Below, piece after piece: positions 9,628 through 59,332 of a DNA stretch of 64,000 nt; the stretch's first letter is position 1, and each line of letters opens with the position of its first letter. The position numbers and the translations under genes are program-made. Location of the stretch: the NCBI GenBank assembly GCA_964457085.1, contig CAYWDM010000002.1:116037-180036 (forward strand). The letters are read 5' to 3'. The notes beneath the pieces were generated by a model, which ran no database searches, was not told where the DNA came from, and saw only the letters and a program-made list of their open reading frames with translations. This DNA comes from an uncultured Pseudomonadales bacterium (lineage in GTDB: Bacteria; Patescibacteriota; Microgenomatia; UBA1400; PJMF01).

Positions 9628-9672
9628 CTTGATCGTTTGCACCGAAAAGTGCATTGACTTGAAAATAAAAAA

Positions 9673-9697
9673 CCACCTCGAAAGGGGTGGTTTTTTG
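9673..9697 (+). terminator. Rho-independent terminator after rpsO.
   Basis: CCACCUC-GAAA-GGGGUGG (GNRA tetraloop) followed by U6. Confidence 0.8.
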
Positions 9698-9768
9698 GTT
9701 GTACAAATAACGAGAGTGATCTGAGGTGAATGATTGATTTTGATCAGTAATCTCTGTACAGTGATGGT

Positions 9769-10134
9769 ATGGGTGTAAATGCTACTATTTCTAATACCAC
9801 AAATGCCGTTCAGTCTGGCATAAATGACCTCCCACTTTCAGCTGCAGAACAAGCATTGAAAGATCGAATTGATCGTTATAACCAATTACCCGAAGTTAAA
9901 GGTGAAGAGTTGGTAGATCAGTACTTGGATCTACAGACCACATCGACAGTGATTAAATCAGCTGTGCAGATGGTACAGAGCGATGCTCATACAAATTTGA
10001 TTGATCAAGATACAAAACAGACCATGACTGCAGAAATTAAAACTGCGAGCCAACATCTCCTTGGTCAAGCTTCTGATTTTTTAACTGTGTGCAAAGAGTA
10101 TAAAGACCAAAATGGTACAAAGAGTACTTCATAA
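9769..10134 (+). CDS. Hypothetical protein, 121 aa, first gene of the accessory region.
   Basis: ORF ending 6 bp before the 1047-aa gene, so probably co-transcribed. Confidence 0.45.
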   Translation: MGVNATISNTTNAVQSGINDLPLSAAEQALKDRIDRYNQLPEVKGEELVDQYLDLQTTSTVIKSAVQMVQSDAHTNLIDQDTKQTMTAEIKTASQHLLGQASDFLTVCKEYKDQNGTKSTS

Positions 10135-10139
10135 GTAAT

Positions 10140-13100
10140 ATGCCAAATGAAAACATCCCCTTCCTAAAGGAAATCCAAAAAGGCTATTTGCCAAATGCAA
10201 AAAATGCAGAATCTGCAAATGCAGTTTTTGACTTAGTGGCAGATGAGGCTAAATCTGTAATGGAAATGGGTGAGCAGGCAGAGGTAGTTTCGAGTGCTGC
10301 ACGTCAAGCGATTAATGAAGTCTTAAAAGGAGAACAAGTCTGGACGACCGTTTTGGAATCGGTTCAAAAAAAGTTGATGGATGGCGTTGGCAATATGGAT
10401 TCCCTTCGTGAGCTCCGAGCTTTGCAGGTGTTTGTCAAAGAAAATTTACCGATACTTTCTCAGGGTAGATTAGAGAAAAGTGGTACTGGTGAGGGTGCAA
10501 GGCGAGAACGTGCTGAGATAGTGTTAGAAGTGCAAAACATGGTGGTGAGCTCTGTTGCGGAAAAATTGGCAGACACCAAACATTTACCGCCCAGAATTAC
10601 ATTTGTACAATCTTGGCAAACTGCGATTCCTGATTTAAAGCGGAGGCTAGGAGTTGCTGGCAAAACTGAACTCTCCAAGGAGATTGACAACTTATTGGAT
10701 GCAAGTACACCATCAGGCAATGACGCACTACTTCAAGTAAATAGGATGTTTTCGGAAGCGAAAATTACTGAATTTGTAGCTCGTTATGAGGTGAAATCAG
10801 AAGCTGATTCAGAATCTGCCACCACCATGTCTCCACAGGGCGAAGTGTATGCAGCATTTCTGCAACAACAGCTGGAATCTTTTGATGCCGGGCAGCATCA
10901 AATAATCAACACTCAAGTTACTCAATTAGAAGAACAATTTTTGAATGACATATTTGCTGGGATCTGGCAGAGAAATGGTAAACTTTCGAAAACGCTAGAT
11001 GAATTACCTGATGATCGTAGAGGTAACAGAGCTATCTCCGAGATAGTCAAGATGAGTGTGGAAGGTGGTAATCTGGGTGATTATTTATTAGCTTTGGGGC
11101 AGTTAAGTAATGAACAGCGAAGAATTGCTTTCCAAAACTCATATGATGCTTGGAATAAAGTTCCTAGAACCGCAGAGGAAAAGTCAGAAGCAGCAAAGAT
11201 ACTATTGGTGGCCTTTGATAGGGAGACAGACGGTGAAACCAATTACGCAGTTGAACAGCTGCAAAAGAGTGCTGGAAATCCTGATGTAGTGCAACTTCGG
11301 GCCGAGTCAAAAGCAGAACTGACGAAGGAAGCCATGGGTGAGCTTACATCCGATTTATTCACTATTGATCTGACAAATCCAAGTTACAGACTCTATGTGC
11401 CTGAGTTAGTCAGTAAGCTGATCGATAAGGGTGTAGATACTCGGAGGTTAGCCGCGGCTCAACTAGCGAAACAAGAAATATTCCAAACTACAATTACTGA
11501 TATTCTAGAAAAACACATGCCAAAAGATGTCACACAGGCACAACAGTTTATCGATGAGTCTAGATTTGCTTTAAAAAATGCACAGAAATTGGAATATTAT
11601 CGACAAGGAAAAGATGGCTTTGTGATTCGGAAGGACTTGGGTGAGCGTGACAATCAAGTGCTGGAGCGTCGTAAGCAACAAATGTTTTTAGTAGGCTTCG
11701 TACGCCATTTGTTAAATCAACCTCAACATGCACCAGAAGCAGTGACTGACATGCGGCAGTATTTTGCAGATGCCGAGAAGTTTGGAGTTACCGCCAAAAT
11801 CTTGATCGATATTCATAACTCTGTCTCTACCGCGATTGTGGCATTTAATAAGAAAATCGAGGCTACAAGTGTGGGAGCTTATCACAGAGAAAGTGCTGCA
11901 ATTGACTTTACCGACCACATGACACGGGTTATGAAAATCCCACCTCCACTTGGTGTTCATATGCTCACCATGACTGAAGCAAAAGGTCTAGAGAATTATG
12001 GCTGGGGCGGTGAGGATCGCCCAAGCACTGGTAATGTCGGAATATATACTGACAATGCTGAGGATTCGAGAGATCAGGTTATAGCTGGGTATGCAGTGAA
12101 AGATGTTCTAAAAAGAGCTCAGATGAAGGTTGATAAATCAGGGATTGTCCCGTTATTAAATACCGGAGCTGAGCTAGATTCTTTTGAGTCTAGACTGGCC
12201 AGACATGAGTCATTGCTCAAGCCAGGGTTTGGAGGAATGTATGAGGGCCAGCAATGGCACAATGTTGATAGATTTGACAATCTAATCAAAAATGATCCAT
12301 ATGTCGATCTACAAACAAAAGCAGCGGAGTCTTTAGTTGAGCCTGATGAGCAGGCATTAAAAGCAGCCATGGAGAAGTTGGCACTGACAGGTAAAAAAGG
12401 AGATGAGCTATCATCAGCCGTAGATTCTTGGGGATATCATTGTGAAAATGATTACTCAAGACTTGGTTTTGCAGAGAAAGGCCTAATTAGGTTGGGAGGT
12501 GGTAGTAGCACACTTGCGAGTGAGAAGCACAGGTATGAGCAAAGCGCCGAACAGTTAACTGGCGAGAAATTCAATTTACTTGAGAGTGCAGATCGGTTGC
12601 GTTTGAGAAATACTCTTGAAGCTAGGAAGAAAGCAGCGCAAAAGAAATTGGCTACAGAGATTGCTACGAAGATCAAGGGAATTAGTGCAAAAGTAGTTTC
12701 TGGTGAAAGCATGGCTGCTGAGTATGTAAAAATGATGCTTAAAGATCCAGAGATGCCTTCACTGGAGGTCGTTGATTACAGCCAAAATTATCGTACATTA
12801 AAGGTGATTGCAGCTGATGACATTAATACGGTGCAGACTGATCCTCGCCTTGAAGTTATATATCGTACTTTCCAGAAAGCGAGAGAGGCTTATGGGAAAA
12901 GAGTGTATTCAAAGGTGAATAACTTAGTGGCAAATCGTGCCTATGGTACAGAGACTCAAGCGATAGAGGATGCAGTTGGAGAGTTGAGATTAAAATTAGG
13001 ATATACGGAAGCTAGAGAATCTATGGGGTACAGTAGAGAGCCTTCGCCACCAAAAGTTGATTTAACTCCGATCAGTCGAGCTATCGAACCTGTTCTCAAA

Positions 13101-13283
13101 AAAGGCTATGCACTCAACACTCAAGCAATCAATTTGAATTCAATAAAATCAGAGCCATTCAAGCAAATGCCAGGTGGTTCAGAAGATTCTGAACAGGTAG
13201 TGCTCAAAAAGAAACAAGAGCTTGAACAGAGACAGCAGAAACTAGTGATGGCAGCAACGCCTTCACCTCAGCAGTCATCGTAA
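10140..13283 (+). CDS. Large hypothetical protein (1047 aa), helical and charged, no recognisable catalytic motif.
   Basis: Uninterrupted 3.1-kb ORF with consistent composition and no signal peptide. Confidence 0.6.
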   Translation: MPNENIPFLKEIQKGYLPNAKNAESANAVFDLVADEAKSVMEMGEQAEVVSSAARQAINEVLKGEQVWTTVLESVQKKLMDGVGNMDSLRELRALQVFVKENLPILSQGRLEKSGTGEGARRERAEIVLEVQNMVVSSVAEKLADTKHLPPRITFVQSWQTAIPDLKRRLGVAGKTELSKEIDNLLDASTPSGNDALLQVNRMFSEAKITEFVARYEVKSEADSESATTMSPQGEVYAAFLQQQLESFDAGQHQIINTQVTQLEEQFLNDIFAGIWQRNGKLSKTLDELPDDRRGNRAISEIVKMSVEGGNLGDYLLALGQLSNEQRRIAFQNSYDAWNKVPRTAEEKSEAAKILLVAFDRETDGETNYAVEQLQKSAGNPDVVQLRAESKAELTKEAMGELTSDLFTIDLTNPSYRLYVPELVSKLIDKGVDTRRLAAAQLAKQEIFQTTITDILEKHMPKDVTQAQQFIDESRFALKNAQKLEYYRQGKDGFVIRKDLGERDNQVLERRKQQMFLVGFVRHLLNQPQHAPEAVTDMRQYFADAEKFGVTAKILIDIHNSVSTAIVAFNKKIEATSVGAYHRESAAIDFTDHMTRVMKIPPPLGVHMLTMTEAKGLENYGWGGEDRPSTGNVGIYTDNAEDSRDQVIAGYAVKDVLKRAQMKVDKSGIVPLLNTGAELDSFESRLARHESLLKPGFGGMYEGQQWHNVDRFDNLIKNDPYVDLQTKAAESLVEPDEQALKAAMEKLALTGKKGDELSSAVDSWGYHCENDYSRLGFAEKGLIRLGGGSSTLASEKHRYEQSAEQLTGEKFNLLESADRLRLRNTLEARKKAAQKKLATEIATKIKGISAKVVSGESMAAEYVKMMLKDPEMPSLEVVDYSQNYRTLKVIAADDINTVQTDPRLEVIYRTFQKAREAYGKRVYSKVNNLVANRAYGTETQAIEDAVGELRLKLGYTEARESMGYSREPSPPKVDLTPISRAIEPVLKKGYALNTQAINLNSIKSEPFKQMPGGSEDSEQVVLKKKQELEQRQQKLVMAATPSPQQSS

Positions 13284-13348
13284 ATTGCTGATTTAGTTTT
13301 GCCGATTGCTGACATGTTAATTTCAGAAATGAAGAAGTGGTGACTTCA

Positions 13349-14092
13349 TTAACTATTTGGCTTGAAGTCTTTTGGAAAAGGATGAGCTGAGGGGTAGTTT
13401 TGTGTCCAACCACCACCATATTTTTTGTTGGCCAAGAGTATAGCTCGCTCTCCGGGATCAATCACGATTAGCTTGCCATCAGCAGTGCGTAGTAGCCCTT
13501 TAGCTACCAAACCCTGAAGGATTGAGTCAAAAATTTCTTCTGGTTTATTATTTACCTCGTTGGTGATTTTGTTGGTGTCTTTTTTAGAGATCACTACTGC
13601 TGCCCATAATCGTTGATATGGCCCATCAGTATCATCTTCGCTTTTGCCAAGAAATGAAAAGGCAAACACAAAATCTCCATGTTCCCAGCCACCTTTTTTT
13701 GAATCACAGGGAATTAGATCAAAGGCTGGTTTTCCCAGTAACCCATCTATTACAGTTTGACCGCGACTGTGTGATTGCTTGTCAAAACAGGTTTCATCAA
13801 ATTTGCGAACAGGTACAAAGATACCTATTGTTTTCATGCCACTCTCCACTGCTTGTTTAAATGACTGATCTGCAGTGATTGCAGCTTTTATCTTGCCAAG
13901 AATTTCAGTGAGACCAGGGCTCATTTCTTGAAGCGGTTTGATTTTGTCTCCGTGTAGAGTTTCGCCAGTTCTGCCAAGAAAAAGTGGTGGTGTTTCCTGT
14001 TCCTCAACGCCGAAAAAACCTTCTTTTCCTGGTCCATTTTTGCCAATTCCTGCTTTTCCAATTCCTGCTTTGCCTGCAAGTGCCTGTGCCAT
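13349..14092 (-). CDS. Module protein A1 (247 aa), paralogous to the 19230..19985 protein and divergently transcribed from giant gene B1.
   Basis: The C-terminal half aligns with A2 (WEHGDFVFAF...SKKDTNK... versus EHGWALFVMSGKDTNK...). N-terminal GKAGIGKAGIGK micro-repeat. Confidence 0.6.
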   Translation of the reverse strand: MAQALAGKAGIGKAGIGKNGPGKEGFFGVEEQETPPLFLGRTGETLHGDKIKPLQEMSPGLTEILGKIKAAITADQSFKQAVESGMKTIGIFVPVRKFDETCFDKQSHSRGQTVIDGLLGKPAFDLIPCDSKKGGWEHGDFVFAFSFLGKSEDDTDGPYQRLWAAVVISKKDTNKITNEVNNKPEEIFDSILQGLVAKGLLRTADGKLIVIDPGERAILLANKKYGGGWTQNYPSAHPFPKDFKPNS

Positions 14093-14154
14093 AGTTCTGT
14101 CTCCCAGATCATATTAGCACTAAAAGCCTATGTTTTGCATCATAAAAATCAGCT

Positions 14155-17100
14155 ATGATTATTTTGGAAATGATATTGGAAGCGACAACAGTGACCGGAG
14201 CTAGGCAACATGGATTTGACGATCTTGTTGTGGCTCCTGAGGATCCCGTATCAGTACTCAGAGATTTGAATTGTGGTGAGGTGAGAACAAAAGATACCTC
14301 ATACCTAAAAAGCCAAAATGAAGTTTCGGATATGGTTAAGGCCACAAAAGAACTAAAGTGGCCAGGTTTTTGGTACGAATTACTGCAGGGAGCTTGGGAT
14401 TATAACGACTGGAGTAAAGGTAGTCCTCAAATTACCATTACTTTTGCTGGTGGTGAATCAATTTCACTGGCTCAGTTTGTCAGTGAGTGTGCTGCAGCTG
14501 GTGGTTTAAAAAAACTCAAACGTGGTCGAATTCAAGAAGTGAGTGTCAGCAATAACATTCGCGGAGATACTGGACTGCGACCTGTAAATGTGGTGTTGAC
14601 TGATCACGATGAAAAGGACGGTAAAAAACCACTGGGAACACATGGGCGAGGACTAAAAATTGCCAGTACTTGTGTTTTTGCTGGCGAATTGGCTAAAGCG
14701 ATTTCATATGAGTCATGGGTGCCAGAAATGGGTATGTGGTACGGTGAGGCCGGCATGCATCGGGATGAAGATGACCCAAAAGCTCCAGAAAATTTTCAAA
14801 TTAAATACAAACGAAATAAGGAATTGCAGACAGATAGAACTGTAATTAGAGTAACAGAGCCTGCAGAGGATTTGGTAGAAGCACTAATTTCATTTCAAGA
14901 TTGGTTTTTACCAGTCAATGGCAACTACCGTTTCCAAAGGATGGAGGCACAATCTGCAGATATGGTGCCTAATCGAGCTACGATTTTTGCCAACAAAAAA
15001 CACGCTCAAGAACCCCACGATGCTGCGGTTACTCCTTCAGAGCTGAGGTGGACGTATGGGCAAAATAAACTGGATGAGGCCGATGGTGTGGAACCACCTA
15101 GAGTCGAGATTCTATCGCGGGAATTATTGCCAACTGCACCAAATCCTATTAATTTTGTGTTTATTGATGGTTTGAGGGTGGGAGTGCCGGGAGCTACATT
15201 TTGTCAAATCTATGCTTTTTGGGGCTGGGGCAAAGGGACTAGTCATGGATACAATCCTGGTCGATCAAATGACTCGCTTAAAATGACCGGTGATATTGAC
15301 GATTTGTTGGCAAAAACATTAACGCTTAACACTAATGCAGCAGTTTTTTTGGAAATCATGGTTGCGAATTTAAATGGCCACAAAACGTATGAGGGTACAG
15401 AAGTGTCATATCTAGATGCTCTCGCTGGAAATGCAGCATCAAAGTCAGCACTGACACATGCATGGGAAGAATTAAGGATGGCAACTAATTCACCTGCAGA
15501 TGTTTTGATTACAGACTCTAAAGACGATTATGATCGGGCAAAGCGTGAGCAAAAAGTCGCTTTATTTTTGCCAAAACGATGGACAGCAATTTTGTGTGAG
15601 ATTATTCCAGGTTTGACTACTGCAGGCACGGTTTTTTCTCAAGAATTTGAAGAGGTTCAAGCGAAAGAGAGAGCCACTAGGCAGGCTATGGAACTGCAAC
15701 AGCGTGAAATGGAGGCTCGGGTTGTGAGAGAGAAGGAAGAGGCAATTGAACAATATAGAAAGAGCCGAGGTATTGTTAAGGAGGCATCAAATACTGGTGA
15801 AGTCATTAAAATGGCAAGACCAGAAAACAAACAAATAACGTTGCAACTGGCTTTATTGCATCTGGTGCATGCGTTGGCTATGGATGGTGGCAGAGTTGTA
15901 TCAGGCGATCCAAAGAAATTAATTCTCGAGATGCGAGCTGGTGGTTTTGATCAGTTGCCCAATAATACCAATTCGCTTGATGTACTTGGTGAATTTCTCA
16001 AATTGTACCTGGTGGTGTTTGGTAGTGACGCAATCGCAGAGTTAAAAATCGTGAGACAAGAAAAGGGAGTGTATTTCAATTTTGCCAGAAGTAAAAAAGC
16101 TGATTCTTTTGGCAACTACACCATTGAGGTACAGCAGGGTGAACTGGAACTACCACATGACAGTTGGGTGCAGTTAGAGTTGTCATTACCAGACACAACT
16201 GATGATAACGCATCCACTGGCGAAGCACGCCAACCACTAACTAGTGTTGATGGAGAAGATCTAGATTGTGCTGGATACCATGATGTGCTGACTCAGGCGA
16301 TTCGCGCCATCAGTAATTTGGATGGAACAGTTGATAGAAATGTCTATATGGCGAGTGAATATTTTGCACTGTATCCAGCAGCTGAAGCCAGAATGCGACT
16401 CCGCATGGAGATCGAAAAAACACAGCTTGAAATGAAGCTGTTATTCGATGAACAAAATAAATTGCGAGTGAGGTCTGGACTCAAGCCGTTGCCATATCCA
16501 GATGAATTAAAAACAACACGACCTCGGAAGGTGGGGCTTGGTGCTGGTATGGGACTACCGCCTGCGGAAGCCGACCTAACTCCAGCAGAAGAAGAGGAAA
16601 AGACTAAACAAAATCGTGAACATTCTGCAGCTCGAAAGTTACGTCAAAAAATGTCCAACATCTTGACGGGCAATGAAATTTTAGATGATGTTCCAGTCGA
16701 CTCTGAGATTATTAGTATGATTCACCCAGATAGCGTTCCGGGATTGAGTGAAAAAGGCGATGTGGAACGTATGCAGATGGTGCTGGCTGAATTACCCATT
16801 GGTGAGCGGATGAGAGCAACATTGGCTGAAAAGATGCGTGAGATTCTCAATCGTGTGGCAGTGCCAGACTTCTCACTCAGTTCAGGAGAATGGTTGCATC
16901 TGCGCGGATATTTAATTGATCACATTAATCCCGCTCATTCAATCACAACTACAGATAATTATGATGCTCTACCAGCCCTACCATTCACTGAGATGCAGGC
17001 AAATCCCTGTCTCAGATTTAATAAGAAAATTATTGCAGGACTATATTCAATTCCATGCCCACCTGGATTTCATCCGGTGGCAGTCAGTCATCCTGGCGGT

Positions 17101-18747
17101 CCAAATATTGGTTTACATTTCTCTGGCAATTTAGAGAAAAATGTTTTTGCAATGAATCTTGAAAAAGACGTGCCTCCGGGACTGAGTTTTTATTTTGAGC
17201 CGACCAAAACAGTTGATCGTTCATTACCCGATCAGCGTGAATGTGAAGTCACAGCTGATGAATCTAGTTTGGCAGAGCACTGGTTTAATTTGATTACCTC
17301 AATTCGTGAGTCATCACTAACTGATAAGCAAAAAGTTGATGTCATTATTCGTGCTTGGGTCAAGGCTTTTAACTACAGCAAAGAACAAAAAGCATTTGAC
17401 GAATATACAGATAGTCGAGGAATTAAAAAGAAATTTACTACAGATATCATTAACAAATCGATTGGCAACTGTGGGTATGCAACCCAAGGTATTTTAGGGT
17501 TACTTACTTTAATTGGGATTCCGACCAGAGATGTGGCGGCATTTCTGCATGATGGCGGTGGCAATTTTTCGCGTCAAGGAAATTATCACGGTATGGTGCA
17601 AGTCTATATTGATAACCGTTGGGTGTTGATCGAACCGCAAAGCGGATATGTTCAGGAAGGGTATGAAACTGAAGAACTACCCACAACTGTTCGTACTGAA
17701 TTTGAAAATTTACTCGGTGAGATTCCCAGAAGGTACTTAGAGTCAGCTCGAACTGTTGCGGCACTGCCTGATGTAGTTGGAGAAGATGAGAACGAAATAC
17801 CAACCATGGCTACTGGGCTTCGTGAGAGCTTGCGGGCTTTACTGCCATTTAGCTTACCAACATTTTCAAATCCATTTGCACTACTTCGTGACCGATGGAC
17901 TGAATTCATGCAGCGACGTCGAGAATCAAGCGGACGTAATCAGCACGAGGCAACAGTAATAAATCCCGCTGAGTTGCTCCGCGACTTAGCACAGGCAACA
18001 AATGCACTACAGCTAACTGAAGGAAAATTACCAGAGGGAATAACTCAATCTGAACCATTTACTGGTGCAGATATGGGACAGCAATTTTTGATTGAGCTGA
18101 GCACACAAATTACAGAGATGATGGCTGATTCCCCAACAACCATTCTTAATCCAGATGCTCCAATTGCCGAAAGATTAGAAGTAATGGAAGAGCAGTTATT
18201 GCATTACACTCGTTTGTTGCAAACTGTGCGAACAGCACAAATGTATGAGATGGTAACCGATGATCAAGTTGAGGCGATAAAGAATACTGTTGATAGACTG
18301 GGTCAGTTTGTGGTGCAGCTGCGAAATGAACAATCTGAGTTTGAGGATGCACAGCTACGAAAAGAATTATTCAGGGCAAATTTGAAAAAATCATTATTGC
18401 GGCTGAGTGCAGTTACAGCCGGAGCAACCATTGGAGCATTGTTGGCTCCACATATGAATGAGATCTTGTCACTGGGAGCTACTCAATTAGCTGCAACCAA
18501 ACAGCTGGTGGAATCACTGGCATCATCAGGACCAAATCTTCCCTCACCATCTGAAATTGCAACCAGTACCCAAGATTTTGCTCAAGAACAACTCCGAAAA
18601 ATCGAGTCCGTACCACAAAAACCAATTACTGAAACAATGCGACAGTATTGGCTGCTCGCATTAGTGGCAACAATACTAGCTGGCACACATACAGGAGCAT
18701 ATATGTTGGGTAAGACGAAAGAATCACCCGCAGAAATAGAGGATTAA
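14155..18747 (+). CDS. Giant protein B1 (1530 aa) with a transglutaminase-like (papain-fold) Cys/His core near the C-terminus and C-terminal hydrophobic segments.
   Basis: Conserved with B2 over the N-terminus (KDTSYLKSQNEV...WPGFWYELLQGAWDYNDW; IRGDTGLRP; GTHGRGLKIAS; YAFWGWGKG...NPGRSNDSLK). Cys motif IGNCGYATQG, then YHGMVQVYIDNRWVLIEPQ, and a Glu/Lys/Arg coiled central region. Confidence 0.7.
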   Translation: MIILEMILEATTVTGARQHGFDDLVVAPEDPVSVLRDLNCGEVRTKDTSYLKSQNEVSDMVKATKELKWPGFWYELLQGAWDYNDWSKGSPQITITFAGGESISLAQFVSECAAAGGLKKLKRGRIQEVSVSNNIRGDTGLRPVNVVLTDHDEKDGKKPLGTHGRGLKIASTCVFAGELAKAISYESWVPEMGMWYGEAGMHRDEDDPKAPENFQIKYKRNKELQTDRTVIRVTEPAEDLVEALISFQDWFLPVNGNYRFQRMEAQSADMVPNRATIFANKKHAQEPHDAAVTPSELRWTYGQNKLDEADGVEPPRVEILSRELLPTAPNPINFVFIDGLRVGVPGATFCQIYAFWGWGKGTSHGYNPGRSNDSLKMTGDIDDLLAKTLTLNTNAAVFLEIMVANLNGHKTYEGTEVSYLDALAGNAASKSALTHAWEELRMATNSPADVLITDSKDDYDRAKREQKVALFLPKRWTAILCEIIPGLTTAGTVFSQEFEEVQAKERATRQAMELQQREMEARVVREKEEAIEQYRKSRGIVKEASNTGEVIKMARPENKQITLQLALLHLVHALAMDGGRVVSGDPKKLILEMRAGGFDQLPNNTNSLDVLGEFLKLYLVVFGSDAIAELKIVRQEKGVYFNFARSKKADSFGNYTIEVQQGELELPHDSWVQLELSLPDTTDDNASTGEARQPLTSVDGEDLDCAGYHDVLTQAIRAISNLDGTVDRNVYMASEYFALYPAAEARMRLRMEIEKTQLEMKLLFDEQNKLRVRSGLKPLPYPDELKTTRPRKVGLGAGMGLPPAEADLTPAEEEEKTKQNREHSAARKLRQKMSNILTGNEILDDVPVDSEIISMIHPDSVPGLSEKGDVERMQMVLAELPIGERMRATLAEKMREILNRVAVPDFSLSSGEWLHLRGYLIDHINPAHSITTTDNYDALPALPFTEMQANPCLRFNKKIIAGLYSIPCPPGFHPVAVSHPGGPNIGLHFSGNLEKNVFAMNLEKDVPPGLSFYFEPTKTVDRSLPDQRECEVTADESSLAEHWFNLITSIRESSLTDKQKVDVIIRAWVKAFNYSKEQKAFDEYTDSRGIKKKFTTDIINKSIGNCGYATQGILGLLTLIGIPTRDVAAFLHDGGGNFSRQGNYHGMVQVYIDNRWVLIEPQSGYVQEGYETEELPTTVRTEFENLLGEIPRRYLESARTVAALPDVVGEDENEIPTMATGLRESLRALLPFSLPTFSNPFALLRDRWTEFMQRRRESSGRNQHEATVINPAELLRDLAQATNALQLTEGKLPEGITQSEPFTGADMGQQFLIELSTQITEMMADSPTTILNPDAPIAERLEVMEEQLLHYTRLLQTVRTAQMYEMVTDDQVEAIKNTVDRLGQFVVQLRNEQSEFEDAQLRKELFRANLKKSLLRLSAVTAGATIGALLAPHMNEILSLGATQLAATKQLVESLASSGPNLPSPSEIATSTQDFAQEQLRKIESVPQKPITETMRQYWLLALVATILAGTHTGAYMLGKTKESPAEIED

Positions 18748-18748
18748 T

Positions 18749-19237
18749 ATGATTAAACCACCCCAAATTGCAGTGACTTCATCGATCGGTGAGTATGATT
18801 TGTTTGAGTTGATGAATCTCAGCAAAATGCCACAGTCTCAAAAAGATACTTATTTATTGGATGCTAATGCCCTGATTTGGCAGGGTTTTTTGATGGAAAA
18901 ATTACCACATTTATTAACTCAACAACAGTATCAACAACTGCAGCAACAACTAAATGATGGCAAAACTCTCGAGGAAATTTTAGCTTGGTTATTGGAGCTG
19001 GTGCCGAATTTTACATATTTGCTGGCAGAATTCACTCGTGATGCAAAAGCAACATTGGTTGAAAAACAGTTTCAGAGTGAGATCTTGAGCTTGGAAAAAA
19101 TGCTCTCAACAGAATTAACAGAACAAAATTACCAGAAGATAAAAATCAGTCTTTCAAATTACAAGACTGCACTGCGACTTGCAGTACAACAAGAATGGCG
19201 TCAGATTATTGAGTTATGGCAGGCGTCAATTATTTAA
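18749..19237 (+). CDS. Module protein C1 (162 aa), small acidic helical protein paralogous to C2.
   Basis: Its start overlaps the B1 stop (TAATATGA) and a GAGGA RBS is present. EYDLFELM...ILAWLLELVPN...AEFTRDAK aligns with C2. Confidence 0.6.
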   Translation: MIKPPQIAVTSSIGEYDLFELMNLSKMPQSQKDTYLLDANALIWQGFLMEKLPHLLTQQQYQQLQQQLNDGKTLEEILAWLLELVPNFTYLLAEFTRDAKATLVEKQFQSEILSLEKMLSTELTEQNYQKIKISLSNYKTALRLAVQQEWRQIIELWQASII

Positions 19238-19985
19238 CGGTTGTTGTTGAGGCATAATTTTTTGGATATCTGCCTTTAACATGGGTATTGGAAAGAATAA
19301 TCACATGCTCGCCCATATCAACTTCAGCTTGCTCACCAGTACTCAGTTGTAATGGTTCATCTTCTGAAAGCATTCCAAGATCAACTAAATGCTCAAATAC
19401 TGCGGATGGATCCTTCAGACAATCAGCGGCAAATTTATTAGTGTCTTTACCAGACATCACAAATAATGCCCAGCCATGTTCTTGTTTTGGTTGAGAGCTA
19501 TCTTCAGTATCATTTGTAGCGGCGATTGCAAAATGAATCACTACTGCGTGGTCTTTTGATCCCCAGTTACCTAGTTTAGATTTGATTGGCTCTTCGACTG
19601 GCTCTTCGACTGGTCTTGAAAACAATTTTTTTACAAAACTAAGTCTAGTTTTTTGACTGGTCTTCGTTGTTCGTGTTGAGCTGTCTAAAAACTGAATAGG
19701 AACCACCTGTAGCCAAGTTGTGTCGCCAGGTTTCATTTGTGACTCTGGAATGGGGTCACCTGCCAAAACGGCTTGAATGTCTTTTCTTTTGAGTACATTT
19801 TCAATTACAGGATCAAGAATTAGTTTCTCAATTTGAGAAGGTTCAAGACCTCTATCACTATGTTCTGGTTGTGGCAGTTTAATAAACTTAAATTTAAATT
19901 TTATTTGACCGTCATCGACTTCTTGTAAATCGGGTTTGCCATCAAGATTTGGTTTTGAGGGAGTAGATTCTGAGATTTGAGTCAT
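19230..19985 (-). CDS. Module protein A2 (251 aa), paralog of A1, divergent from B2.
   Basis: Alignable with A1 over the C-terminal 120 aa. Contains a PVEEPVEEP micro-repeat. The 3' end overlaps C1 convergently by 8 bp. Confidence 0.6.
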   Translation of the reverse strand: MTQISESTPSKPNLDGKPDLQEVDDGQIKFKFKFIKLPQPEHSDRGLEPSQIEKLILDPVIENVLKRKDIQAVLAGDPIPESQMKPGDTTWLQVVPIQFLDSSTRTTKTSQKTRLSFVKKLFSRPVEEPVEEPIKSKLGNWGSKDHAVVIHFAIAATNDTEDSSQPKQEHGWALFVMSGKDTNKFAADCLKDPSAVFEHLVDLGMLSEDEPLQLSTGEQAEVDMGEHVIILSNTHVKGRYPKNYASTTTVK

Positions 19986-20065
19986 GCTAATTCCTTTTTT
20001 ACTCTACTTCAGAATACCACGGAGTACTTGATCTGGACAGTAACTATCAGCTATTCTGGAGAAGT

Positions 20066-23000
20066 ATGACATTAATGGATGTCCTTGGTTTTGGTGGCGT
20101 CATGTTTCGTGGCTCAAAGAAGTCAGGTGTGGATGGTGTGCCCCCCATGATTCCAGTTGAGATGGGTGACCCGCAGGCAGAGCTACGCAATCTCGGCCCA
20201 GAATCAAAGGTTAAGGGTACTTCATATAACGATCAGCAGAACGAAGTACGAGAGATGATTGATGCTACCAAAGAAAAGCGTTGGCCAGGTTTTTGGTATG
20301 AATTACTGCAGGGTGCATATGAGTACAACGATTGGAATCGGGGATTACCACGGATTTTAGTATATTATGCCGGAGTGGCTGAACCAGTGAGCTTGACTCG
20401 GTTTGTCTCTGATCGTGGTCGATTTTTCCATCGCAAAGTTGAAAGAGTTGAAATCAAAAACTATATTCGAGGCGATACTGGACTACGACCGCATAATGTC
20501 GCCGCAACTCTTCATGAAGAAAAAGATAATCAAGTTGGTTTGAGTGCTCATGGACGTGGGATGAAAATTTCATCCACTGCAGCCGCAGGTCATTTGGCGA
20601 AAGGCATCACTTTTGAGTCATGCGTACCTGGTATTGGTGCTTGGTTTGGTCGTGGTGAGATTGCACGGGATGAGGAGGATCCACGACCTTCAGATACATT
20701 CCAACTGCGGTATAACAATAATCCTGCATTGAGAGCAAAAGAGACCATTTTTACCGTACTTGAACCAAATAGTGCTGCTTTGAAAGCCTTGTCTGATTTA
20801 CCCAAATGGTTTTTACCCACGAATCCCGCATATCCAAGCTATCGTCTTGATGCAGAGCCAACCGCAACACGACCCAATAAAACTACTATATATGCTAACC
20901 AAAAGTTTGTGGGAGCTGAGAATAGTCTCGCTTTCTCTGAAAGAGAATTAAATTTATTTGGAAATAGTGGATTAAAATCTGAAGCTAATGCAGTTGAACC
21001 TGCTCGGGTTGAAATATTACCGGATAACTTGACTGGAAAGCGACGGGGCAAAATCGACTACGTATATGTTGATGGATTGCGAGTGGCAGTTGAGGGTGCC
21101 CAGTTTGCTAATGTGTATGCCTTTTGGGGGTGGGGCAATGGTGATCATGGTTTTAATCCGCGTCGTTCCAATGATTCCTTGAAGTTGGCAAATGCAATGA
21201 ATTTTTTACTAGGTGCCACGTTGTGTCGTTGTCCAAATCCTGAGGTATTTTTATCCATTCTACGTTCAAATTTGAATGATAAGGCCACCTTTGAAGGGGG
21301 TACCGGCATTTTTGAAAGACATTGGTACGACCTTTCAAAAAGTATGACTGGTGAAGCAAAAGCTGCCATGAGTGCTGCTTGGGGTCAGTTGACTACCGAA
21401 ATTGGTGTCAAAGGCAGAGTGTATGTCACATCTGAAAAAGAATCAAAGCAACGAGCCAAGCGAGAGAAAAAACCAACCATTTTGATGCAGCAGAACTGTT
21501 TAGCAATGTTGATGGTATCGAGATCTGATCTAAGGACTGTTGAGTCGGTGTTTGAAGATGAGGCCAAGGATGCAGAGGCACGTGAGGCTCAATTGAAATG
21601 GGAGAAAGATAAATTAATTCGTGAAAAAGAAGAACTGAAAAAAGAGGCTAAAAATAGAGACGAATATCTAAAGTTAGAGGCGGCAAAGGAAGCCGAGGCT
21701 AACGCCAAAAAGCGAACTGGTATTAAAGAGTATGCCGAAAGTACTGGAGAATTTCTCCGAGTGGCAGCACCCGATGATCCATCAATTGCAGTTGAGATGG
21801 CAAAAATAAATTTAATTAATTTATTTATGCTCAACCAAGGCTCTTTTAAACTAGAAAAAATTGGCCTTTTTGCTAAAACCGGGAAATTGGTAATTGATTT
21901 GCAGATGCCTGAGCTGGTGACGCTGCCGAGAAATGTTAAAGACATGGGACCGGTTGGTGATTTTGTGTTAAATTTTTTAGCCGCTGGTTCCACGACTGCT
22001 ACAGCCGAGGTGAGGTATGTGCGCAATTCAGAGGGGGTCTATTTTCATTTAGGTCGGTCGATGATTGACGAAAGGATTGATAAGTTTGGTAACTTCAGGA
22101 TTTTTGTGAATCAGGGTTCACTAGACATGACCGACAAACATCTAGTGAGAATCACACTCGATTTAGGAGAAAATGATGAGACAAGATTTAACGGTGAAGT
22201 GGCAAAGATATTTGAGTCATTGCAAAAGGCTGATGGCACTCCTGATGTAGATCGGTATCTGGAAAGTCAGTATTACCATGATTTTCCACCAGGTGAAGAT
22301 AGGCTTAAAGAAAAACGCAAAATGGAAGCGGAGCTACAGCAATACGAAAAGCACTTAGCTGAAGAGAATAGACGTCGACGTCGTGTTGGCCTGCCGCCAT
22401 TACCGAGCAAATACAATGCCAAATCAAGATTTGGTGGGCATGACGAGTTTGAAGATGAACCTGCATCTGGAGGAAGAGCCAAACTCCCCGCACAACGTGA
22501 TCGCAAAACCTTAGATCGTATTAGACGTTCTGAAGAACGAGCGATCGGTGATTCTGGTATCGATATCCAAGATGCGATCTTATCGCTGATGCACCCAGAT
22601 GCCAGGCCAGGAATTACTACGCATGGCACTGAGAAGCGACGGCGCATGGTACAAGAATCACTGTCTGGAAACGAGCGGCTTAGAAATGAAGCTGCAGCTC
22701 GGGCTAGGGAGATTTTTAAGCGACAATTGATCCCAGATTGTTCGATGTCGTCTAGTGAGTTTAGTCGGGTGAGACCATACCTTATTGACCATATCGACGA
22801 TGAAAACTTTGGCACTGACGATTACGACATCTTGAGTGGTTTTGAGTTTGGCCAGTTGAGTAATTTGCCCAAATTGAGGTTCAATAAACCAATTGGTTCC
22901 GGACTAGGCTCACTCCCTTGCCCTCCTGGGTACAGGCCAGTTGGGTATTATCACCCAGAGGGCGAGATTAAAGGACTGCATTTTTCAGGAAATTTTGAAC

Positions 23001-24136
23001 GCAATGTTTTTGCCATCTCATTACCTCGTGGTATTGATAAAGGCCTAACGGTCTACTATCGAAAGTTGAAATCATTTGCTGATACCACAGAGCCGACGGA
23101 AGAAAATCGTCGTTGCAGAGTGAAGGTGGAAACATTAAATGGTCCATGGTCTGAGCTGTTGATTGCATTACGCGATAGTCCTTTAAATGAAAAACAAAAA
23201 GCCGACATTATCATTCGAGCTTGGTCTCAGCGGGGCTTTATCTATGATAAGTCAGAGGCAGGACATCGTAAGTACGACCCGTATGGCTCGATTGATAGCC
23301 CTGAGTTTATGAGTGCTATTCTTAATTTTGGAAATGGTACTTGTGGGCATGCGGAAAAAGGTTGGCAGGGTGCGGGGACTGCTTGTAACTTGGCGGTTCG
23401 AAAAGTTACCAGTTATCTTGCTGGTGCTAATGGCGGTTTCTCGATGCGTGAAAATTTACATGGCTTGATACAGGTCTACATTAAAGATAGGTGGGTATTG
23501 GTAGAGCCACAAGTCGGATATATAGATCCTGGATATGAGTTAGAAGAAATACCAGCTCCATATCGTGAGAAATTTACTCGTTTGATTGAGGCGATACCTA
23601 ACGCAAAAGTTACTTCCCCAGAGCGTTTATCAGCGTTGCCAGATGTGCTTTCTGAAAACACAGAAAATTACACCAGCATGATGGAAGAATTAAGAATGAA
23701 ATATGATGAATATTTTGGTGATGGAGAACAGCTCACGCTCAGTGACTTGATGGTAGCTGTGCGTTCCGGTTTTGTCCAATTTGACAAACGCAAACTAGCA
23801 CTCTCACTTGCTAAATATTCAGCTCTAACCTTAGCTGGGGCATTTGCAGTACATGAAATTACACCAATGATTCCGAAGTTAGCTGAAATGACATTACAGC
23901 TTTTGGACTCAATTCCTCCAGAAAAATTAAGAAATATAGCAATTGGAACCATAGTGTCCATAGTCGCAATATCATATTTAGGTACCGGGAAGATTGGATT
24001 TGAGATCGGAAAATATATTGAAAGTCGTCGGTTAAGTTTAGCTTTTGCTTCCGATGAAACAGCAGCACTTCCAGATAGTTCAAGTGATGGTGGTGAAGAG
24101 AGCCCTTTGCCTGCGATACTACCAGTAGTAGACTAG
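20066..24136 (+). CDS. Giant protein B2 (1356 aa), paralog of B1 with a transglutaminase-like Cys/His core and C-terminal transmembrane-like helices.
   Basis: Shares the motifs WPGFWYELLQGAYEYNDW, IRGDTGLRPHNV, SAHGRGMKISS, YAFWGWGNGDHGFNPRRSNDSLK, GNGTCGHAEKGW and LHGLIQVYIKDRWVLVEPQ with B1. Confidence 0.7.
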   Translation: MTLMDVLGFGGVMFRGSKKSGVDGVPPMIPVEMGDPQAELRNLGPESKVKGTSYNDQQNEVREMIDATKEKRWPGFWYELLQGAYEYNDWNRGLPRILVYYAGVAEPVSLTRFVSDRGRFFHRKVERVEIKNYIRGDTGLRPHNVAATLHEEKDNQVGLSAHGRGMKISSTAAAGHLAKGITFESCVPGIGAWFGRGEIARDEEDPRPSDTFQLRYNNNPALRAKETIFTVLEPNSAALKALSDLPKWFLPTNPAYPSYRLDAEPTATRPNKTTIYANQKFVGAENSLAFSERELNLFGNSGLKSEANAVEPARVEILPDNLTGKRRGKIDYVYVDGLRVAVEGAQFANVYAFWGWGNGDHGFNPRRSNDSLKLANAMNFLLGATLCRCPNPEVFLSILRSNLNDKATFEGGTGIFERHWYDLSKSMTGEAKAAMSAAWGQLTTEIGVKGRVYVTSEKESKQRAKREKKPTILMQQNCLAMLMVSRSDLRTVESVFEDEAKDAEAREAQLKWEKDKLIREKEELKKEAKNRDEYLKLEAAKEAEANAKKRTGIKEYAESTGEFLRVAAPDDPSIAVEMAKINLINLFMLNQGSFKLEKIGLFAKTGKLVIDLQMPELVTLPRNVKDMGPVGDFVLNFLAAGSTTATAEVRYVRNSEGVYFHLGRSMIDERIDKFGNFRIFVNQGSLDMTDKHLVRITLDLGENDETRFNGEVAKIFESLQKADGTPDVDRYLESQYYHDFPPGEDRLKEKRKMEAELQQYEKHLAEENRRRRRVGLPPLPSKYNAKSRFGGHDEFEDEPASGGRAKLPAQRDRKTLDRIRRSEERAIGDSGIDIQDAILSLMHPDARPGITTHGTEKRRRMVQESLSGNERLRNEAAARAREIFKRQLIPDCSMSSSEFSRVRPYLIDHIDDENFGTDDYDILSGFEFGQLSNLPKLRFNKPIGSGLGSLPCPPGYRPVGYYHPEGEIKGLHFSGNFERNVFAISLPRGIDKGLTVYYRKLKSFADTTEPTEENRRCRVKVETLNGPWSELLIALRDSPLNEKQKADIIIRAWSQRGFIYDKSEAGHRKYDPYGSIDSPEFMSAILNFGNGTCGHAEKGWQGAGTACNLAVRKVTSYLAGANGGFSMRENLHGLIQVYIKDRWVLVEPQVGYIDPGYELEEIPAPYREKFTRLIEAIPNAKVTSPERLSALPDVLSENTENYTSMMEELRMKYDEYFGDGEQLTLSDLMVAVRSGFVQFDKRKLALSLAKYSALTLAGAFAVHEITPMIPKLAEMTLQLLDSIPPEKLRNIAIGTIVSIVAISYLGTGKIGFEIGKYIESRRLSLAFASDETAALPDSSSDGGEESPLPAILPVVD

Positions 24137-24160
24137 ATATAAATAAATATACATAAACCT

Positions 24161-24709
24161 ATGGTTACTGAGATGGCTCCAACAAAATCAATAGACGATT
24201 ACTCAGTTTTTGATTTGATTGGTGTTGAGTTAACACCAGAAGAACAAGAAAGCTATATCTTGGAATTAAATGATGAGGTATGGACTCGGTTTATCGAACA
24301 ACGGTTACCGTTTTTATTGACCGAAACTCAGTTGGATGAGCTGCGTGACCAACTTACTGAGACAATTCCATTTGATCAGATATTAACATGGCTGCAGCAG
24401 CTAGCTCCAAACACTCCAGAATTAGTTGCAGAATATACCCGTGATGTTAAAACTGAAGCCATTGAGAAGAGTTTGCTCGCACAATTGGCTCAGTGTGAAA
24501 AAATTCTAGCTAATGAAATTTCTGAAGAACATCGACTGCAACAACAAGAGCGACATGAACGGCTGCAGGCTGCTATTGGCTACGCACAACAGCAACTGTG
24601 GGATGATGTCGATCGTGTCCTCAACAGCTCAGAACCATTTGTGATAGGTAGTGAGGGATATGCAATTAATAAAATCGATTCAGTTGAAGTAGATGAGGAA
24701 TCAAAATAA
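24161..24709 (+). CDS. Module protein C2 (182 aa), paralog of C1.
   Basis: DYSVFDLIGV...ILTWLQQLAPNTPELVAEYTRDVK aligns with C1; same position relative to B2. Confidence 0.6.
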   Translation: MVTEMAPTKSIDDYSVFDLIGVELTPEEQESYILELNDEVWTRFIEQRLPFLLTETQLDELRDQLTETIPFDQILTWLQQLAPNTPELVAEYTRDVKTEAIEKSLLAQLAQCEKILANEISEEHRLQQQERHERLQAAIGYAQQQLWDDVDRVLNSSEPFVIGSEGYAINKIDSVEVDEESK

Positions 24710-24712
24710 ATC

Positions 24713-25321
24713 ATGATTGAAAATAACCAAGCCACATCAGCAGTTGGAAGTAAAATCAATCTGGCAGATGTGCCAAAAATGCCAGAGAATAGTTCGCCAG
24801 GTATCAAAGCTGAAGTTGAAACACACCTGCAGGTGGCGGTTGATACCATTGAACATGCCTTAGCTGCATTACCAAATGCTACTCCACAAGAGATTAATGA
24901 CCAACTCAAAACGATTCAAGGACTTCGTGACCAAGTCAATCAAAAAAACCAGTCCTGGCAACAACGATTAGAAGCAATTCGGGCATTGAATCAACAAATC
25001 AATGCTTTCAAGGCAGGAGCAAGAGAGGCAGCGGATGTACGACCACCAGCAGGGACACTACGAATTAATAGTGCTTCCATGAGGGCTCTTCTTGGTACGC
25101 TTGGCGTTTCATCTTTACCTGCTTTCGATCACGATGTTTTAAGTGCGACCTCAACTATAGGTGTTAATTTAAATCAAGCTGAAGTCGAATCACTTCGAAA
25201 AGAGCGAGATGCTCTCGGTGATGTACCATTAGAGCATACAGGTGCAATGGATTGGATCATTGCCAAACTCGATGAAGCCGCTGAGGCAGTTCGTGCAGCT
25301 GCGAGATTAACTGCAACATAA
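24713..25321 (+). CDS. Hypothetical protein (202 aa).
   Basis: ORF 4 bp after C2, polar/helical. No recognisable motif. Confidence 0.45.
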   Translation: MIENNQATSAVGSKINLADVPKMPENSSPGIKAEVETHLQVAVDTIEHALAALPNATPQEINDQLKTIQGLRDQVNQKNQSWQQRLEAIRALNQQINAFKAGAREAADVRPPAGTLRINSASMRALLGTLGVSSLPAFDHDVLSATSTIGVNLNQAEVESLRKERDALGDVPLEHTGAMDWIIAKLDEAAEAVRAAARLTAT

Positions 25322-25349
25322 TTTGATATCTTAAAAGATAAGGATATAT

Positions 25350-25940
25350 ATGTCTGAAATAAATGGCGTTAAAGAACTCGAATCAAGATTGAGTGAAAGT
25401 GCAAAGCGGAATTTAGATGTACAGCGAAGTGTGTATGAGCACCAAGATGCTGAATCATTACGGGAGAGTATTCAAACATTTAATGCCCAAAACGGATCGC
25501 CTGAAAGTACTTTTGCTTGGCTGAAGCAGCGAGCAGACAATCATCCTAGCGATGTTGGTCATCATGTTGCCCCATTCGATGGTGAGAAATGGGATACGTA
25601 TGCCGCCATGATGTTGGCAGGTCTTGAGGTGGTAGCGACAAATCCTGAGTTGGCAGAGATCGCTCAGCCAGAGCATTTTTTACAGGTGTTGCAGCTCATT
25701 AGCGACCACGTCAAAAATTCAGGATTAAAAATCGGCGAGAAGCTTAAGCTTTTTGGTTCTCCAGCTCAATTAAAAATTGATTGTGCCACATTTTTAGAGA
25801 TGGGAAAAATACTGATAGCTAACCAGAGTAAACTGGAGCCAGAATCAGCCCCAGTATCCGCCCCAGTATCCGCAATTAGCCATCTGGATTTGGATGATGG
25901 CCCTCTGGGTCAACATGGTCAAGGTGTAAAGGTTTCCTAG
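25350..25940 (+). CDS. Hypothetical protein (196 aa).
   Basis: ORF with a short SAPVSAPVSA repeat near the C-terminus. No recognisable motif. Confidence 0.45.
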   Translation: MSEINGVKELESRLSESAKRNLDVQRSVYEHQDAESLRESIQTFNAQNGSPESTFAWLKQRADNHPSDVGHHVAPFDGEKWDTYAAMMLAGLEVVATNPELAEIAQPEHFLQVLQLISDHVKNSGLKIGEKLKLFGSPAQLKIDCATFLEMGKILIANQSKLEPESAPVSAPVSAISHLDLDDGPLGQHGQGVKVS

Positions 25941-26233
25941 TAGTCTTTTTGTTATTTTGGTTACTTCTTATCGAATAGTAGACATTACTACAGCTATTGC
26001 TGTTGTGGCTCTGTTATAATTACCCAGTAAGTAATTTGGCTCGTCAGAGGATGAGTCTAGTTTAATTTTGGAAAACGGTTGAGAATTCAAGAGAGATGAT
26101 GAGGATGGGTGATAACTCCAGTTGGCATTCAAATAGCACAACTCGGACACTTTCATTGCTTGTCTTTTCTCCAGAATGCTCACGTTTTCCCCTAAGTTGT
26201 CAGTGATCTGGCAGCAACACAGAAAGGACTGTT

Positions 26234-58076: not shown

Positions 58077-58084
58077 TTTAAATG

Positions 58085-59255: not shown

Positions 59256-59332
59256 TGGTGGACAATACAGGACTCGAACCTGTGACCTCACGAATGTGAA
59301 TCGTGCGCTCTAACCAGCTGAGCTAATTGTCC
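59256..59332 (-). tRNA. tRNA-Val (anticodon CAC), CCA encoded.
   Basis: Manual fold: acceptor GGACAAU/AUUGUCC, D-arm GCUC-AGCUGGUUA-GAGC, anticodon stem CACGA/UCGUG with loop UUCACAU, T-arm ACAGG-UUCGAGU-CCUGU. Confidence 0.85.

Follow-up and report, generated by a model that had tools for sequence, protein, structure and literature searches.

Tandem, diverged three-gene modules in a bacterial chromosome encode giant proteins that join a predicted GHKL-type ATPase module to a transglutaminase-fold core

The window analyzed in this study, a 64,000-nucleotide (nt) stretch of contig CAYWDM010000002.1 (positions 116,037 to 180,036) from an uncultured bacterium, carries two consecutive copies of a three-gene module in which a short minus-strand gene (A) is divergent from a plus-strand gene for a giant protein (B), which is followed on the same strand by a small gene (C). 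The first copy comprises A1 (13349-14092, minus strand, 247 amino acids [aa]), the multidomain core protein B1 (14155-18747, plus strand, 1530 aa), and the acidic C1 (18749-19237, plus strand, 162 aa), and the second comprises their paralogues A2 (19230-19985, minus strand, 251 aa), B2 (20066-24136, plus strand, 1356 aa, with the same architecture as B1), and C2 (24161-24709, plus strand, 182 aa). A first-pass annotation of this DNA had reported these six open reading frames (ORFs), with coordinates and strands that proved exact, and had placed each C start against the preceding B stop, which agrees with gaps of 1 nt (B1-C1) and 24 nt (B2-C2). Its further claim that the genes form three paralogous pairs was upheld by pairwise BLASTP alignments, all of them significant and far beyond chance: A1 and A2 share 26% identity over 191 aa (E = 3e-15), B1 and B2 36% over 1251 aa (E = 0), and C1 and C2 32% over 155 aa (E = 5e-29). 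The accompanying estimate of 30 to 45% identity was sound for B and C but too high for A (21 to 26%).

The tandem is not an artefact of one assembly, because the A1-B1-C1-A2-B2 junctions are also found on an independently assembled Logan contig (L008). Module 2 is ~35% (B), 21% (A), and 30% (C) identical to module 1, about the same identity as it shows to the modules of other genomes, and a recent tandem duplication was rejected, since B2 is no closer to B1 than to those other modules. B1 is 61% identical to its orthologue in L001, a locus with module 1 only at the same rpsO-pnp position; a neighbour-joining tree grouped these two with 100% bootstrap and placed B2 outside the group formed by B1, L001, L004, L005, and L009 with weak support (57 to 62%). 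Either the duplication is older than these lineages and L001 has lost copy 2, or the lineage of the window gained module 2 independently. The earlier view of an ancient duplication without assembly artefact is supported by the L008 junctions and by a module 2 that is ~35% identical to every other module. Identity between modules ranges from 14 to 26% for A, except for 57% in the B1/L001 orthologue pair, and from 27 to 43% for B. Pairwise identities over seven modules were correlated (Spearman 0.64 for B with A and 0.54 for B with C); the A, B, and C families co-diverge.

A word-index search of 5.8 billion protein clusters returned only seven B proteins, B1 and B2 included. On the contigs of the other five, each B has a divergent upstream gene of 190 to 242 aa and, after a gap of at most 25 nt or a short overlap, a downstream gene of 153 to 177 aa, and these flanking genes align with A1/A2 and C1/C2, respectively. 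The A(-)/B(+)/C(+) order recurs in the same orientation and in single copy in L001-3, L004, L005/6, L009, and L010, and on L011, a short JGI contig found with a 16-sequence alignment, A adjoins a partial B. Counted over all loci, A homologues lie upstream of B in six other loci and C homologues directly downstream of B in five other genomes. A scan of genome contigs for B yielded only L006, which is the same contig as L005, and L007. Profiles of A and C run against all ORFs of the fetched loci gave no matches at other positions.

The surroundings of the module vary. It lies between rpsO and pnp in the window and L001, next to glycosyltransferase/Wzy and toxin-antitoxin-type genes (Gp49/HTH, NTase/HepT, Fic) in L004, beside MFS and VIT genes in L005, and near nrd, tsaD, and groEL in L009; as the neighbours differ between loci, the conserved element is the triplet itself. 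Housekeeping neighbours (rpsO/pnp, cysS, nrd, tsaD, dnaB, murein ligase, leuS) were found in the window, L001, L005, L009, L012, and the P0068 contig, and around B in the same six no integrase or mobile-element signature was seen. A search for relatives on plasmids or viral contigs found none. Because the same gene order recurs in unrelated housekeeping neighbourhoods, gene order and alignment together mark the A/B/C triplet as a real, co-inherited functional unit; the first-pass annotation had suggested such a co-varying unit, and the co-occurrence search extends it to at least five further uncultured genomes with different neighbourhoods. The two outcomes that would have contradicted that annotation, pairs without significant similarity and a triplet seen in no other genome, were thus both excluded.

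From its N terminus, B is arranged as a GHKL module with transducer, a helical domain, a charged coiled-coil-like segment, a pseudo-GHKL domain, a helical or disordered linker, a conserved pre-domain, a transglutaminase (TGase)-fold core, and a variable tail with a probable anchor. In B1 the predicted GHL-class GHKL ATPase module (Bergerat fold plus transducer) spans 14242..15279 (plus strand, residues ~30-375) and the helical domain after the transducer, delimited by DSSP of the model and by alignment, spans 15292..15624 (plus strand, residues ~380-490). The charged segment follows (residues ~495-540) and leads to a second Bergerat-like alpha/beta sandwich without nucleotide-binding motifs (15772..16194, plus strand, residues ~540-680), which is probably a pseudo-GHKL domain. 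The GHKL module of B2 lies at 20105-21541 (plus strand, ~residues 14-492).

The GHKL module was revealed by fold prediction only. An AlphaFold2 model (predicted local distance difference test, pLDDT, 76.7; predicted template modelling score, pTM, 0.75) has the Bergerat alpha/beta sandwich that is a feature of the GHKL superfamily, and its structural matches (match value, then residues aligned) comprise the phage T6 topoisomerase II ATPase domain (11.3; 241), Escherichia coli ParE 43 kDa (10.8; 235), human TOP2B (10.6; 225), SMCHD1 (10.1; 267), MutL (9.8; 217), MORC3 (9.7; 227), Topo VI-B (9.6; 265), Hsp90, TRAP1, and GRP94 (8.3-8.8; 145-242), sacsin SR1 (6.5; 135), and histidine kinases (~5). 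With 217 to 267 residues aligned, the match spans the Bergerat fold and the following transducer, which points to the GHL class of GHKL ATPases. On the strength of the model, B1 and B2 appear to be members of a bona fide but atypical GHKL family.

Motifs were assigned by eye on the model. The N-box of B1 reads Y74-E75-L-L-Q78-G79-A-W-D82, with Gly in place of the Mg-binding Asn. Among 91 aligned family members (P0001-P0091) this box is dimorphic, many having Y-E-x-x-Q-N-x-x-D-Y and others Q-G; the family as a whole has the canonical N-box Asn, but all seven A/C-associated B proteins, B1 and B2 included, have G79 and do not show the canonical E-x-x-x-N. The N-box Gln, invariant in 37 full-length relatives, might substitute for Asn. 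The G1-box region of B1 reads N133-N-I-R-G-D-T-G140-L-R-P143 (N-x-G-x-G-L in distant members, as read by eye from the alignment). The ATP lid, G161-T-H163-G164-R165-G166-L-K168, shows the G-x-x-G-x-G pattern, with H163 and G164 nearly invariant and G166 invariant in 37 sequences, and is followed by a T229-V-I-R-V-T-E-P236 motif and an invariant R370-S-N-D-S374 loop. In the 37 full-length relatives E75, Q78, G166, T229, R370, S374, and, in the TGase core, C1106 are invariant.

The predicted module resembles GHL-class ATPases in its N-box Glu and Asp, its GxxGxG-type lid (G-T-H-G-R-G), and, possibly, the invariant basic residue Arg370 in a predicted transducer loop. As further leads, the T-x-V-x-V-x-x-P motif of B resembles GTxVxFxPD of GyrB, the GyrB lid is G-L-H-G-V-G, and the sacsin-type ELLQNADDA resembles the B family consensus Y-E-L-x-Q-N-A-x-D-Y. 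Unlike known GHKL families, B is undetected by any GHKL sequence model, has in its window copies Gly for the Mg-binding Asn and apparently Asn for the adenine-binding Asp, gives no Pfam match to Toprim, MutL C-terminal, CW, hinge, or Hsp90 M/C domains, and carries on the same chain a second, degenerate Bergerat-like domain and an enzyme of TGase fold.

The catalytic core of TGase fold lies at 17302..17637 in B1 (plus strand, residues 1050-1161), with Cys1106 (GNCGYA), His1145, and Glu1160 (IEPQ), and at 23267-23509 in B2 (plus strand, residues 1068-1148). The Pfam model PF01841 (Transglut_core) matches B1 above its gathering score (E = 2.6e-8, 34.5 bits against a cut-off of 23) and B2, which is 36% identical to B1 here, below it (E = 3.6e-3, 18 bits); the domain was found in the C-terminal part of seven of eight relatives tested against Pfam. 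Ahead of the core is a strongly conserved region (B1 residues ~900-1030) with the motifs LRFNK and CPPG[YF]xP. The C1106/H1145/E1160 triad is invariant in alignments of 7 and of 16 sequences; over 37 sequences the Cys is invariant and the His nearly so, with Asp as the third residue in some relatives. A profile of those 37 matched a transglutaminase-like putative cysteine protease in PDB, 3isr_A (E = 2.2e-4), whose Cys and His fall opposite those of B. These alignments point to a TGase-fold core with an intact Cys-His-Glu triad. The first-pass label "giant transglutaminase-like" was accordingly right as a domain call, but it covers ~110 of 1400 to 1500 residues and missed the ATPase module.

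B1 continues for ~370 residues beyond the TGase core. B2 does not have the ~170-aa C-terminal insertion that is present in B1 and L001. The B1 tail includes a weakly hydrophobic segment, LLALVATILAGTHTGAYML (18652..18708, plus strand, residues 1500-1518; Kyte-Doolittle window 1.55), that is a candidate membrane anchor, and B2 has two hydrophobic segments (23795-23851 and 23927-23983, plus strand, residues 1244-1262 and 1288-1306). Among 76 long (>=900 aa) representatives of the family, 39 show stronger hydrophobic segments, one or two each, beyond the TGase core, and an N-terminal one is absent from all 76. Because of this distribution, the bulk of B is probably cytoplasmic, with a C-terminal membrane tether. 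B1 has a net charge of -53. Two antisense ORFs within B2 (21589-22026, minus strand, 145 aa; 22273-22815, minus strand, 180 aa) have low-complexity, Ser/Arg/Cys-rich translations and are almost certainly shadows of the B2 frame, not genes.

The B family is very rare: a HMMER search with an N-domain profile against 1.84 billion representative proteins found 90 at E <= 1e-3. One relative is annotated merely as "transglutaminase-like putative cysteine protease," and annotation pipelines miss the ATPase part because no sequence model recognizes it and the family is extremely rare. The distant B relatives checked keep the GHKL-plus-TGase architecture, yet A and C are absent around P0052 (L012), P0096 (L013), and P0068; at L007 (B 33% identical), where only the upstream side was covered, there is no A or C upstream of B and a glutamate dehydrogenase gene stands there. 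Since the distant relatives examined do without A and C, B would be ancestral and self-sufficient, and A and C look like accessories of one clade that the family at large does not need.

The first ~40 aa of A1 form a low-complexity tail rich in Lys and Gly, and a globular region comes after it. Neither A1 nor A2 has a transmembrane (TM) segment, a signal peptide, or a match in Pfam, NCBIfam, PADLOC, or PDB. Seven aligned A sequences have just three invariant columns, which argues against an enzyme or a sequence-specific regulator, and no HTH or other DNA-binding domain was found in A, so that the role of regulator once suggested for it finds no backing here. C1 is probably all-helical, and C2 is very acidic (net charge -25); no TM segment, signal peptide, or significant family match (Pfam, NCBIfam, PADLOC, PDB) was found for C. 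As a lead to possible relatives of C, the C homologue of L004 aligns with DUF5663 (PF18908), a group of small helical proteins, over positions 5-83 of 84, nearly the full profile but below threshold (E = 0.031, 15.3 bits, cut-off 23.7). This sub-threshold match occurs in one of seven C members, and C1 and C2 themselves have none; a literature search for DUF5663 in open-access PubMed Central full text and bioRxiv preprints found nothing. Sub-threshold similarities of the C family to MIT-type three-helix bundles (calpain-7 MIT in PDB, E = 0.28; Vta1, 0.68) and, in one member, to NRBF2_MIT (E = 0.0024, not significant) were also seen, and the C loci with MIT or DUF5663 similarities include L004 14106-14603 and L005 14049-14510. 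The idea that A or C is a detached copy of part of B was rejected (hhalign probabilities of 0.2%).

We tentatively propose that B is a nucleotide-gated, membrane-tethered cysteine peptidase or transamidase acting on proteins, with A and C as clade-specific partners, a reading that in our judgment falls somewhat short of probable. In this model the GHKL module would serve as a nucleotide-dependent clamp or switch, with the degenerate second Bergerat domain as its intramolecular partner in cis. The clamp would capture or sense a macromolecular client and thereby gate the cysteine peptidase/transamidase, which would cleave, deamidate, or cross-link a protein at the cytoplasmic membrane face. In the window clade, Gly instead of Asn in the N-box may lead to atypical nucleotide binding or lost hydrolysis. 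A, divergently transcribed, fastest-evolving, and with a Lys-rich disordered tail, and C, coupled to B, acidic, and probably helical, would most likely serve as regulatory subunits, specificity subunits, or dedicated substrates, each diverging along with its own B, and the two modules, as old paralogues, would presumably act in parallel on different partners.

Several observations weigh against this proposal. The GHKL domain goes unrecognized by sequence (Pfam, NCBIfam, and PDB profile searches were negative), and its motifs were read by eye on a model. The alignment suggests that the G1-box Asp is replaced by Asn133, with a three-residue insertion in the window clade; because B1 and B2 are without the Mg-coordinating Asn and the G1-box Asp is apparently Asn133, ATP binding or hydrolysis may be altered or lost in them. 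Peptidase, transamidase, and deamidase chemistry are inseparable by sequence for a core of this fold, the hydrophobic segments near the C termini of B1 and B2 score low (1.5-1.6), and the roles given to A and C are guesses.

If the proposal is true, the fusion of a GHKL module to a cysteine peptidase or transamidase would link nucleotide state to protein modification in a new way. The roles known for GHKL ATPases are those of DNA clamps (topoisomerases, MutL, MORC), protein chaperones (Hsp90, sacsin), and kinases. That genomes which look small, judging by the genes near B, keep a 4-kb gene, here twice, suggests an important cell-biological role, and the Asn/Gly dimorphism of the N-box within one family would provide a natural test of Mg-ATP binding by GHKL sites. 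A more specific version, in which B represents a new class of nucleotide-gated proteolytic or transamidating machine (a GHKL clamp with a pseudo-GHKL domain in cis and a membrane-tethered TGase-fold enzyme), A is a substrate or pro-protein, C is an adaptor or inhibitor, and the two modules are insulated and co-diversified, we regard as doubtful.

It is also conceivable, though unlikely, that the module is a conflict system, directed against phages or against a host or competitor, in which an invader would be sensed by the GHKL module (a role proposed for paraMORC ATPases in restriction-modification contexts), the effector would be the TGase-fold peptidase, A and C would supply specificity or an antidote, and the diverged tandem copies would reflect diversifying selection. 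Such a role would suit the much faster evolution of A than of B (14-26% versus 27-43% identity between modules, the B1/L001 orthologue pair aside), the presence of two diverged modules in tandem, and the Gp49/HTH, NTase/HepT, and Fic genes beside the L004 module, and TGase-like peptidases and GHKL ATPases have each been described in prokaryotic conflict systems (PMC3710099; PMC8195603). However, no PADLOC model (PADLOC-DB v2, E <= 0.1) matches A1, B1, C1, A2, B2, or C2, and the six loci named above have housekeeping neighbours and show no sign of integrases or mobile elements. Two species keep the module in synteny within the rpsO-pnp gap, no relatives turned up on plasmids or viral contigs, and the module is usually single-copy, in apparently small genomes.

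Less likely again is that the B proteins of the window clade are pseudo-ATPases, in which the GHKL fold would be a scaffold or oligomerization platform for a constitutive TGase-fold enzyme and A and C would have taken over the regulation formerly exerted by nucleotide. In its favor, G79 is invariant in all seven A/C-associated B proteins, many relatives keep the Asn, and A and C were found only beside G79-type B proteins of the window clade. Many distant Gly-type members, however, are also without A and C (P0052 and P0068 have Q-G-M in the N-box), and the HGRG lid, Thr229, and Arg370-x-x-x-Ser374 stay invariant, which is unexpected for a dead site.

The model of the first-pass annotation, with B as a secreted or surface effector or adhesin, C as its chaperone or immunity protein, and A as a regulator, is improbable. 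Inspection of B for secretion signals revealed neither a signal peptide nor a TM segment at the N terminus, adhesin repeats are likewise absent, and the largest conserved part of B is the predicted GHKL module, a fold whose characterized members are intracellular; ~700 residues of B belong to folds of the GHKL type, which are familiar from machines that work inside cells. The TGase core lies within the chain instead of forming a toxin tip at its C terminus, and the surrounding genes include none for a secretion system. A is nearly devoid of invariant residues and without a DNA-binding domain, and the distant B relatives examined are without both A and C. Features of polymorphic toxins are likewise missing, as there is no secretion domain or signal peptide, the TGase domain is not at the extreme C terminus, and C is not always adjacent. 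What speaks for an effector is that C is small, acidic, and coupled to B, like many effector chaperones and immunity proteins, that A is divergently transcribed, like many regulators, that the genome looks reduced and possibly host-dependent, and that TGase- and papain-fold domains are known in bacterial toxins. BTLCP effectors are mentioned in PMC8195603. Taken by itself, a chaperone or immunity role for C is still conceivable.

Highly improbable is a DNA clamp of the MutL, MORC, or topoisomerase kind with the TGase fold as a noncatalytic, Rad4/XPC-like module for handling chromosomal or foreign DNA at the membrane: the best structural matches are DNA enzymes (Topo II, ParE, SMCHD1, MutL, MORC, Topo VI-B) and the coiled-coil-like segments that follow the ATPase are reminiscent of how MORC and SMCHD1 are built, but the Cys-His-Glu/Asp triad is kept, whereas the Rad4 fold is inactivated, B gave no match to Toprim, MutL C-terminal, nuclease, or HTH domains, B1 is very acidic, and the protein chaperones Hsp90, TRAP1, GRP94, and sacsin match nearly as well.

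Returning to B as a putative nucleotide-gated cysteine enzyme, its relation to known systems is one of partial likeness. It shares with the transglutaminase-like superfamily the above-threshold profile match of B1, the Cys in G-x-C-x-x-A, the His, and an acidic third residue, and differs in that this third residue is Glu, not Asp, and in that the core lies at the C-terminal end of a >1000-aa protein that starts with GHKL domains. MoxR-DUF58-TgpA operons provide a functional link of an ATPase with a membrane-associated TGase-like protein; unlike TgpA-type proteins, B is predicted to be cytoplasmic, not periplasmic, and has no DUF3488/DUF4129-type flanking domains. In logic only, and judging from architecture, B may be compared with FtsH and membrane Lon, which likewise combine a nucleotide module, a peptidase-type domain, and a membrane anchor in one polypeptide. 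The modules themselves differ, being GHKL rather than AAA+ and a papain/TGase-fold Cys enzyme rather than a Zn or Ser protease, the anchor of B would be C-terminal, and ring assembly or unfolding activity is no part of the likeness. No description of a GHKL-transglutaminase fusion was found in open-access PubMed Central full text or bioRxiv preprints, the nearest mentions being paraMORC-HEPN fusions and TGase-helicase-HEPN giants (PMC3710099). B is a real, rare, uncharacterized family of new architecture, outside any curated GHKL family.

The divergent spacers between A and B measure 62 base pairs (bp) in module 1 (14093..14154) and 80 bp in module 2 (19986..20065, with GGAG 5 nt before the B2 ATG). 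Shortly before the B start, both contain the 9-nt sequence ATCAGCTAT (14148-14156 and 20046-20054), which is also present at the L001 orthologue; by a rough estimate, the chance of any 9-mer common to two spacers of such size is ~0.02. Outside this sequence the spacers have little in common. The claim of conserved divergent promoter regions therefore retains weak support from the shared 9 nt but does not extend to the remaining spacer. The annotated B1 ATG (14155) sits within a TATGAT -10-like hexamer and ATCAGCTAT. An ATG at 14170 (Met6, MILEA...) aligns with the MILEL start of the L001 orthologue, and this alignment makes Met6, five codons downstream, the probable true start of B1, possibly with a very short leader. 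At the other end of the gene, a GAGGA Shine-Dalgarno-like motif lies inside the B1 end, and because the C1 ATG comes 1 nt after the B1 stop, translational coupling of B1 and C1 appears likely. The 3' ends of C1 (plus strand) and A2 (minus strand) are convergent and overlap by 8 nt, and a terminator-like hairpin on the minus strand (19190-19166) suits A2 and lies inside the C1 coding sequence.

The window is chromosomal, with dnaJ-like, nusA, infB, rpsO, pnp, sodA, suf, ddl, Mur ligase, RNase J, ftsK, and alaS genes. Within it, rpsO and pnp, normally a tight pair, are split by ~16 kb of genes without known domains (9628-26233): the two A/B/C modules are preceded by genes for proteins of 121 and 1047 aa and followed by genes for proteins of 202 and 196 aa. 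The corresponding gap of L001 contains a single module with distant homologues of the 121-aa/1047-aa pair behind it, so that pair and module stand in inverted order in the two species. This pair, an acidic 1047-aa protein and a small upstream protein (9769-13283; 15084-18482 in L001), shares 20% identity with L001 over the full length of the large protein (E = 8e-12) and 21% for the small one (E = 6e-4), and has no match in Pfam, NCBIfam, or PADLOC and no similarity to B. The 202-aa (24713-25321) and 196-aa (25350-25940) ORFans lie downstream of C2 in the same orientation, separated by a few to ~30 nt, and have no homologue in any other fetched locus. As terminator-like hairpins come only at 25988-26057, the two may be cotranscribed with B2 and C2. 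These neighbouring ORFans were rejected as parts of the module, since L001 alone has counterparts, distant ones, of the 1047- and 121-aa genes and no fetched locus besides the window has the 202- and 196-aa genes.

The only RNA genes detected in the window are a tmRNA (Rfam RF00023, 82.5 bits; 58082-58516, minus strand) and a tRNA-Val(CAC) (59256-59332, minus strand). A short IF2 (501 aa, 6214-7719), an RNase J (52338-53999), and a short AlaRS (646 aa, 61360-63300) together suggest a reduced genome of the Patescibacteria/CPR type. Bacterial PNPase is typically ~700 to 730 aa long; the PNPase encoded downstream of the modules (26234-28813) has 859 aa, with RNase PH, KH, and S1 domains that end at about residue 711, followed by a C-terminal extension of ~150 aa.

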